From Rhodospirillaceae bacterium (lineage in GTDB: Bacteria > Pseudomonadota > Alphaproteobacteria > MPNO01 > UBA2964), in assembly GCA_002720855.1 (NCBI GenBank), contig PBIN01000014.1, positions 777,619 through 841,618 on the forward strand: a stretch of 64,000 nt of DNA, written 5' to 3'. A model generated the notes under the pieces. That model made no database searches. It worked only from the letters and a program-made list of their open reading frames with translations, and was not told the origin of the DNA. Shown one piece after another: positions 11,851-13,755 of this stretch. Every line of letters begins with the position of its first letter. The first letter of the stretch is position 1. Position numbers and translations under genes: made by a program.

Positions 11851-13755
11851 ATGGCAGAAACCTCTATTGAAGCGATCCCAAAGCAGAAGTCCACACAACT
11901 GGTGCCTACCCAGCTTGTTCGTATAGTTTTTATTGCATGTTTTATTGCCATTAGCGCTGTCGTCTTGTGGCAGACATATTACTGGTCGCAAAAGATTGGA
12001 CTTGAAGAAATTCGTGAGCGTAACGATCACACACTCAATCTAATCGTAACCAATCTTCAGGGGGAACTCTCCCAATTCCAGTATCAACCCGCATTGCTGG
12101 CAAACAGTAAATTATTTCAGTCAGTTCTCCTGGATCCCGCCTCTGGTCCTACTCTTAACGGACTGAATCGTGAGTTGGAACGTGTCAATTTTTTGTCGGG
12201 CGCACTCGAAACATTTCTCGTAAACAAGGCGGGAATAGTTGTTGCCTCCAGCAACTGGGCTGCAGATCGTTCTCTGGTTGGAACGTTCGTTGGAGCAAAA
12301 CCATATTTCCAGACCGCAATGCACGGGGGATTGGGCCGATATCACGCGATATCAGGACCGCCCGACGCAGGGGAAATGAGCTATTTCTTTGCGCATCCCA
12401 TCAGGTCCTCAAACCGTCAAATAGGTGTTGTTGTTATCAGACTGCGATTGGGAAGCCTTGAAGAAAGATGGCTTGCGCCCGACCACGAAACCCTCGTTCT
12501 TGATGAAGCTGGCATAGTTTTTATGAGTACGCGATCTGACTGGCGGTTTAGATCGACAGCGTCCCTGAACGACGAAATTTTGTCAGGTCTGAAGAGATTG
12601 CACCAATATGGTGACCAAACATTTCCACCGCTCAATATTTCGCAATCGGTAGGTGGTAACATTATTGAGATAACCCAAAGCCAACCCCCGAACAGTCAGA
12701 ATTCTTCGTCAGAAAGAACCACCCGGTATCTTCTTCAACAAAAGAAAATGACGACGGCGGGGTGGCGAGTTCTGATTTTAGCAAAGTTGGACAGCGCCAC
12801 CCTTCAAACTAATATTTCTCTGATTGTTGTTAGTTTTATGCTGGTCAGCGCCCTGTTACTTTTTGCTGTGCTCTATCAAAGGCGATTGCGCCTGCAGGAA
12901 CGTATATCGCTTCAGGAGGCCGCGCAGGCGAACCTTGAGCATCAGGTTGAACAACGGACAGAGGCCCTGACCGATGCGAACCTGCAGCTGCGAAACGAAA
13001 TATTTGAACGACACCGTGCCGAGGCGGAACTTCATAAAACGCAAGCCGAGTTGGTTCAATCCGCGAAACTGGCCGCGCTTGGCTAAATGTCCGTTGGTCT
13101 GAGTCACGAGTAAAACCAGCCGCTTGCGGCGATACGGTCTTACTCCGATAACGCGAGAACATTTTTGGATCGCAAACAGCCAGAGTCGGTAAATTCGAAT
13201 CTCGAGGGCATCTCCGAGTTAACAGAACGGATGGCGCACATCATTCGCAACCTACGGACATACGCGCGGGGTGAGCCGGTAGAAGCGCGGCCAACATCGC
13301 TTCGTGTGGCTATTGAAGAAGCCCTAAATTTGCTGGAAGTTCGATTTAGGGAAGAGGCGGTTGAGCTTGATGCAAAATTGCCGGACAAGAGCATCGAAGT
13401 AGTTGGCGGAACCGTTCGATTGCAACAGGTTTTTGTAAATCTGATTTCCAACGGCATTGACGCGATGCAGGGTTGCACACAACGGCAATTGAGTATCTCA
13501 GTAGACGACAGTGAAGATAAGGTATTCGTAAAAATTTCCGATACAGGGCCGGGCATCAATGAGGAGGATCGGGCCAATATATTCGATCCATTTTTTTCGA
13601 CAAAAAAAGTGGGCGAGGGAACCGGTCTGGGATTGTCAATTTCTTACGGTATTATCAATCAGTTCGGCGGCCAGATAGAGACCCACAATAAGGAAGCCGG
13701 CGGTGCAGTATTCACCGTCACGCTTCAGCGGGCGGGGAAAAAGAAAGCAAATTGA
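11851..13755 (+). pseudogene. dctB: DctB-type C4-dicarboxylate sensor histidine kinase, interrupted by two in-frame TAA codons (13084-13086 and 13111-13113) within the H-box
   Basis: One frame carries a periplasmic double-Cache sensor, a TM segment, a coiled coil and HisKA, then an intact HATPase_c (N, G1, G2 boxes). The H-box reads [35 protein letters not shown], against the canonical [10 protein letters not shown](L/I)SHELNQPLAAI. Confidence 0.8.

Follow-up and report, generated by a model that had tools for sequence, protein, structure and literature searches.

Two nonsense codons flank the phospho-acceptor histidine of a DctB-type sensor kinase gene: a probable young pseudogene in a dct locus undergoing loss

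In Pseudomonas aeruginosa, expression of dctA and dctPQM requires DctB/DctD together with RpoN (PMC7962211). The locus described here lies in a 64,000-nt stretch of DNA, called the window throughout, and its sensor kinase gene has the same domain order (dCache sensor, TM segment, HisKA, HATPase_c) as the kinases of P. aeruginosa PA5165-PA5166 and of the Sinorhizobium/Rhizobium DctB-DctD systems. Here, however, the kinase frame is broken by two TAA codons. The gene order is tadA, dctB, dctD, a 198-aa gene on the opposite strand, dctP, dctQ, dctM, and the features are as follows.

11851..13755, plus strand: dctB pseudogene of 635 codons, including two internal TAA codons and the terminal TGA; dCache_1 sensor, TM segment, coiled coil, HisKA, HATPase_c
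13084-13086, plus strand: stop 1, TAA at codon 412, a CAA>TAA change; polymorphic in the population (C in contig L005)
13105-13107, plus strand: codon CAC for the phospho-acceptor His419, invariant in 119/119 homologues
13111-13113, plus strand: stop 2, TAA at codon 421, a probable TTA>TAA change; present in 8/8 fetched contigs
13758..15119, plus strand: dctD, an intact NtrC-family sigma-54 activator with a full-length receiver, a sigma-54 interaction/AAA+ domain with GAFTGA, and HTH_8
15126..15722, minus strand: 198-aa gene of no known family, between dctD and dctP; also in sister lineages
15939..15954, plus strand: sigma-54 -24/-12 promoter TGGCACAGTTTTTGCA, 78 nt upstream of the dctP ATG
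16032-17036, plus strand: dctP, full-length DctP profile (Pfam)
17145-17798, plus strand: dctQ, full-length DctQ profile (Pfam)
17799-19163, plus strand: dctM, full-length DctM profile (Pfam)

The dctB frame runs from the ATG at 11851 to the TGA at 13753-13755 and contains exactly two internal stops, one on either side of the His419 codon. This agrees with the first-pass annotation, which had reported two in-frame TAA codons around the phospho-acceptor histidine and the same peptide. The two substitutions are 28 nt apart. In the read-through product, Pfam places dCache_1 at residues 52-236, HisKA at 416-475, and HATPase_c at 522-627; the last is complete, spanning profile positions 4-109 of 111. 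The periplasmic domain matches V. cholerae DctB (3BY9; phmmer E=9e-29) and S. meliloti DctB (2ZBB and 3E4O; E about 1e-21), and so has the double-PDC/dCache sensor domain expected of a DctB-type kinase. The H-box phospho-acceptor histidine and the complete HATPase_c are likewise present at the level of sequence homology, as are a DctD partner and a dicarboxylate transporter behind a sigma-54 promoter, with the same synteny in sister lineages. Judged by its sensor fold, H-box, catalytic domain, DctD partner, and sigma-54-driven dctPQM, dctB is by predicted ancestry a DctB-type C4-dicarboxylate sensor kinase.

Gln stands at codon 412 in 111 of 119 homologues, and Leu at codon 421 in every one of them. 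The homologue alignment is gap-free across both stops, indicating that they are secondary point changes in a real gene and not the pattern of a chance open reading frame. A functional histidine kinase needs an uninterrupted sensor-DHp-catalytic frame, and this one is broken at codons 412 and 421 by a triplet that is a working stop in this organism, so the proposal that kinase function is abolished holds. The kinase must be dead in the present-day population, and dctB carries what defines a pseudogene, a real disabling lesion relative to intact orthologues.

The exact 411-aa product of the truncated gene was found in at least 22 contigs (ENA, JGI, NCBI, Logan, and Tara). It is present in the public protein collection as MBK19788.1, labelled "Rhodospirillaceae bacterium" and derived from a metagenome-assembled genome (MAG). 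Eight contigs were fetched for comparison: ERZ909118, ERZ841381, JGI 3300020348, JGI 3300020351, GCA_002306905.1, ERZ27286495, Logan ERR599084, and Logan ERR599089. They represent differing samples and assemblers, but many come from Tara Oceans runs, so that their independence is one of sample and assembler and not of project. The second TAA was present in 8/8 of these contigs, both stops in 7/8, CAA/TAA in 1/8, and an intact frame in 0/8, in a set retrieved by exact protein identity, which rarer dctB alleles could escape. The fetched contigs differed from the window at only 1 to 3 positions over 4 to 14 kb and therefore sample one low-diversity population. Among 5.8 billion cluster representatives searched by homology, no full-length protein was more than 75% identical; the cluster of N-terminal fragments consisted of only two sequences, of 411 and 420 aa, and the nearest intact orthologues were 74% identical. 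A scan of GTDB genomes with the repaired dctB protein gave only distant relatives, at 47% identity or less. The earlier suggestion of a strain-specific lesion does not fit this distribution, since the second stop is in every population contig on record and the protein collection contains no intact allele.

The two mutations can be placed in a likely order by comparison with the sister loci and with one population contig. Codons 412 and 421 are CAA and TTA in the closest sister locus (L006; about 74% amino-acid identity), and CAA/TTG and CAG/CTC in the other sister loci. All are sense codons. Contig L005 (DBTE01000025.1 of GCA_002306905.1) encodes a 420-aa variant (P0121) with CAA at 13084 and TAA at 13111. 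The first-pass annotation had proposed that the stops were single-base changes from CAA and from TTA or CTA and had suggested a search for those codons in orthologues; the CAA of L005 and the CAA plus TTA of L006 bear this out. Given the CAA/TAA intermediate, the stops most likely arose sequentially, the upstream stop being the later mutation in a gene already dead. TTA>TAA at codon 421 would thus most likely have come first, and stop 2 is most likely the primary inactivating lesion. This order is read from a single contig of a MAG, whose consensus could mix co-occurring strains. In the proposed first step, a T>A change would have converted the invariant Leu421 codon, two codons past His419, to a stop, with loss of the second DHp helix and the whole ATP-binding domain and hence of kinase activity; this allele is in all contigs on record. 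In the second step, C>T would have converted the Gln412 codon of the dead gene to TAA, presumably a neutral change without functional effect; this is now the majority allele.

Apart from the stops, dctB shows little sign of decay. In addition to the Pfam domains, 108 of the 109 columns that are at least 95% conserved in the 119 homologues match the consensus in the window DctB, the sole departure being the stop at codon 421. Intact control homologues showed 0 to 3 departures over the same columns. The earlier description of a DctB-type kinase gene that is otherwise undecayed is therefore upheld. Tajima-type relative-rate tests with nine sister proteins and four outgroups gave no acceleration of the window dctB branch (e.g., 32 versus 32 unique changes); only 1 of 36 tests had P<0.05, and the faster branch in that test was the sister. 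Over 22.3 kb the population has five SNPs, of which dctB holds three: the stop/Gln polymorphism at 13084 and the two below.

12963, plus strand: dctB SNP, G in the window and L005, A in seven other contigs; synonymous
13392, plus strand: dctB SNP, C/A, non-synonymous (Ser/Arg) in the dead C-terminal part (P0122 versus P0125)

The share expected for dctB after weighting for sampling depth (Watterson-weighted) was 0.127 (P = 0.017, from small numbers). Few as the SNPs are, their excess in dctB points towards relaxed constraint. The retained conserved columns, the lack of rate acceleration, and the SNP pattern indicate that the inactivation of dctB was very recent, as judged from sequence.

The remainder of the regulatory circuit is intact in the window. 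The dctD ATG lies 2 nt past the dctB stop, and dctPQM (16032..19163) is an intact TRAP transporter. The only perfect match to the sigma-54 consensus TGGCAC-N5-TTGCW in 64 kb is the site at 15939-15954, with 0.08 expected by chance. Three sister loci keep its TGGCA and TTGC elements unchanged, in intergenic sequence with a mean column identity of 75%. Because dctP has the only perfect sigma-54 promoter of the window and this promoter is conserved in the sisters, the transporter is probably dependent on DctB/DctD. Without the kinase, DctD would be expected to stay unphosphorylated and to leave the dctPQM promoter unactivated; the TRAP transporter would then be uninduced and so dispensable. Cross-phosphorylation of DctD by a kinase encoded outside the window may occur. 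Since translation ends prematurely about 640 nt ahead of the tightly coupled dctD start, polar effects may reduce the synthesis of DctD as well. The possibility that the two A/T-enriching changes had created a sigma-70 promoter for dctD inside the gene was considered and rejected; there is no promoter-like site at or near the stops.

Two other features of this part of the window were recorded. The 198-aa gene has no Pfam or NCBIfam match and carries the His-rich motifs HDHGDVW and HQEHGG, and its position is conserved in all sister lineages examined (L007-L009). A second TRAP-type system, apparently intact, lies at 27003-30087 (plus strand) and consists of a solute-binding protein of the NMT1_3 (TAXI-like) family and, after it, a 663-aa membrane protein of fused DctQ/DctM type. 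The organism thus keeps other TRAP transporters while dctPQM is being lost.

Two lesions were found downstream of dctD, one polymorphic and one in a neighboring gene.

15791..21776, strand not applicable: deletion polymorphism, 5,986 bp absent from L002 and L005; junction 15790/21777
20435..21810, minus strand: aldehyde dehydrogenase pseudogene with a 1-nt deletion frameshift at about 21536-21538; split into 97 + 357 aa

The 5,986-bp segment holds the sigma-54 promoter, dctPQM, an IalB-family gene, a 161-aa ORF, and most of the aldehyde dehydrogenase pseudogene. Microhomology at its junction (L002 7936-7940; L005 13940-13959) is limited to a few bases. In sister lineages the segment is retained, in the order dctB, dctD, 198-aa gene, dctPQM, IalB, aldehyde dehydrogenase, UbiD; the deletion is therefore the derived state. 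In the contig look-up dctP was downstream in 13 contigs and the deleted arrangement was found in 7, about a third of those on record. Two scans of the JGI metagenome collection for the H-box DNA, with both stop positions free or with the 27-nt core between them, gave zero hits, that collection evidently being without the JGI contigs of this sequence (L003 and L004). The first-pass annotation had offered recent inactivation of a regulator with retention of the transporter; this describes the haplotype of the window but not the contigs from which the deletion has removed dctPQM. The deletion is seen with CAA (L005) and with TAA (L002) at the first stop site, and the undeleted contigs have TAA. 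With an ancestor that was CAA and undeleted, its presence on two SNP backgrounds requires that members of the population have recombined or that the consensus of the L005 MAG is chimeric. As the last step of the proposed sequence, part of the population would have dropped these 6 kb, with the promoter, dctPQM, and the frameshifted aldehyde dehydrogenase, once the transporter had become dispensable.

In the aldehyde dehydrogenase gene, the frameshift puts residues 92-458 in a different frame from residues 1-91. The 97 + 357 aa split is repeated in four independent contigs (L019-L022), and the gene is therefore a real second pseudogene, about 8 kb from dctB. With that exception, about 45 other ORFs of the window have full-length Pfam matches. 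Genome-wide decay was accordingly rejected as an account of the locus: the decay is local. According to the first-pass annotation, close relatives sharing the identical stops along with other signs of decay would make dctB an ordinary old pseudogene. Shared stops and neighboring decay were largely what was found, but the pseudogene appears to be young, not old.

Several observations concern the neighborhood and the sister contigs. In sister contigs ERZ10646592/ERZ10646082 (L008 14184-17302 and 20051-21605; L009 14182-17062), dctP, dctQ, dctM, and UbiD are split; the breaks fall at different places in L008 and L009 and look like long-read indel errors, not decay, which makes these contigs unfit as pseudogene evidence. 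A 651-aa TPR-repeat protein encoded at 9271-11226 (minus strand), between a 237-aa gene and tadA, is absent from the sister loci. Its place is empty in L006 and L008 and taken by two unrelated ORFs in L007, and it appears to be a lineage-specific insertion beside the dct locus. The 64 kb also encode three full-length UbiD-family decarboxylase paralogues, at 21913-25100 (minus strand) and 43320-44858 (minus strand), two of them in tandem, and a UbiA prenyltransferase at 49078-50028.

A pair of substitutions separated by 28 nt in a gene that is otherwise clean invites the suspicion, raised in the first-pass annotation, that the stops are an assembly, consensus, or sequencing artefact and that the true dctB is intact. 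No support for this was found. Both TAAs recur in all the fetched contigs except GCA_002306905.1, seven contigs built from separate runs by different assemblers; GCA_002306905.1 itself has the second TAA. The absence of an intact allele from the protein collection also argues against it. The artefact explanation is refuted for practical purposes and excluded: both stops are real. Hardly any more weight can be given to the idea that a full-length kinase is still made, whether by stop reassignment, a suppressor tRNA, programmed read-through, RNA editing, or ribosomal bypass. The perfect preservation of the remainder of dctB, the TAA-A context at both stops, and the tRNA adenosine deaminase gene tadA directly upstream could all be read in its favor. 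However, preservation is explained by the youth of the lesion, and TAA serves as a genuine terminator in the window more often than any other stop (in 21 of 51 long ORFs, against 18 for TAG and 12 for TGA), whereas recoding would leave its stop depleted as a terminator or require the same residue at both sites. Here the residues needed differ, Gln at one site and an invariant Leu at the other. Site 1 is polymorphic for CAA and TAA within the population and so behaves as a mutation, not as a programmed signal. A suppressor tRNA was ruled out locally, the 64-kb window having no tRNA genes. Editing by the neighboring TadA was rejected as well; the target of TadA is a UACG loop, and a target of this type is absent, while the tadA-dctB adjacency is ancestral and occurs beside intact dctB in the sisters. 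Bypass in the manner of T4 gene 60 fails for want of matching take-off and landing codons in a productive frame, and it would also remove the histidine.

If both stops are real and effective, their clustering and their spread still call for explanation. There are 227 single-base routes to a stop in dctB, and only 3 (1.3%) fall within 9 codons of codon 421. This figure and the closeness of the two changes, together with the majority status of the upstream stop, would suit a single clustered mutational event (e.g., an error-prone repair patch), with the CAA of L005 a reversion or a product of chimeric consensus, or else positive selection for the upstream stop on account of a harmful 420-aa product (e.g., one that sequesters DctD). 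We consider this pair of options, taken together, rather improbable. The intermediate haplotype exists and has the alleles of the window at other SNP sites; one change is a transition (C>T) and the other a transversion (T>A); trimming 9 residues off the 420-aa fragment alters cost and architecture very little; the general excess of polymorphism in dctB fits neutral drift in a dead gene; and the finding was chosen post hoc from a genome-wide scan. The clustering, somewhat improbable but picked post hoc, is most likely a coincidence. The earlier remark that the pattern was unusual for neutral decay loses much of its force in view of the CAA + TAA intermediate and of the concentration of 3 of the 5 SNPs found over 22 kb in dctB. 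The more specific proposal that the upstream stop was selected because a 420-aa membrane-anchored fragment, with His419 and the DctD-docking first DHp helix retained, interfered with DctD or other two-component signaling is a long shot. Were it true, recombination would have carried a compensatory "second kill" through a wild population in the sea, and the locus would preserve the steps by which selection took a regulon apart, from kinase to fragment to transporter. A broader possibility is that the population gained from losing DctB, for example by being spared an unused and costly regulon in oligotrophic water or by shedding a liability, and that the lesion spread in a sweep and not by drift. 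This is unlikely, although it deserves some consideration: the lesion is recent and yet in every contig on record, diversity is low enough (5 SNPs in 22 kb) to be compatible with a recent sweep, and the transporter genes are also undergoing deletion. On the other hand, low diversity spans the whole region and its cause need not be the dctB locus, sister lineages keep dctB intact and show no independent loss, and these data do not distinguish hitch-hiking from direct selection.

The explanation that we favor, with considerable confidence, is that dctB of this uncultured marine Rhodospirillaceae population is a genuine young pseudogene amid ongoing loss of the dct locus. The locus would then be a clean natural example of regulon loss that begins with the regulator. 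Its scientific weight is modest; haplotypes with one stop, with two stops, and with two stops plus the transporter deletion still co-exist in ocean metagenomes. No new mechanism is revealed; that the stops seem aimed at the catalytic histidine is most plausibly chance. There is a caution for annotation as well. In public records the dctB halves are separate "hypothetical proteins" (MBK19788.1 and MBK19789.1), and metabolic reconstructions probably overrate C4-dicarboxylate uptake in this lineage when they take dctPQM as evidence for it. A literature search for this locus or for a comparable dctB pseudogene found nothing relevant.

In comparison with the known DctB/DctD systems, the locus has the adjacent, translationally coupled NtrC-family DctD and a sensor homologous to the solved DctB structures. 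As in P. aeruginosa (PMC7962211), a dctPQM operon lies downstream, here behind a perfect -24/-12 promoter. In contrast with those systems, the kinase is null, with two nonsense codons in its H-box, and the locus is a relic and not a working member of the group. It also resembles the young nonsense pseudogenes of reductive or streamlining evolution, in which regulators are lost before their target operons: the frame is interrupted by point changes while homology is otherwise undecayed, polymorphism appears to be in excess in the dead gene, some members of the population carry a downstream deletion, and there is a second pseudogene close by. It differs from the genome-wide erosion of host-restricted bacteria in that roughly 50 other genes of the window look intact. 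The gene belongs most naturally with the young unitary pseudogenes, which are well known as a class, and the locus with ordinary gene loss at an early stage.
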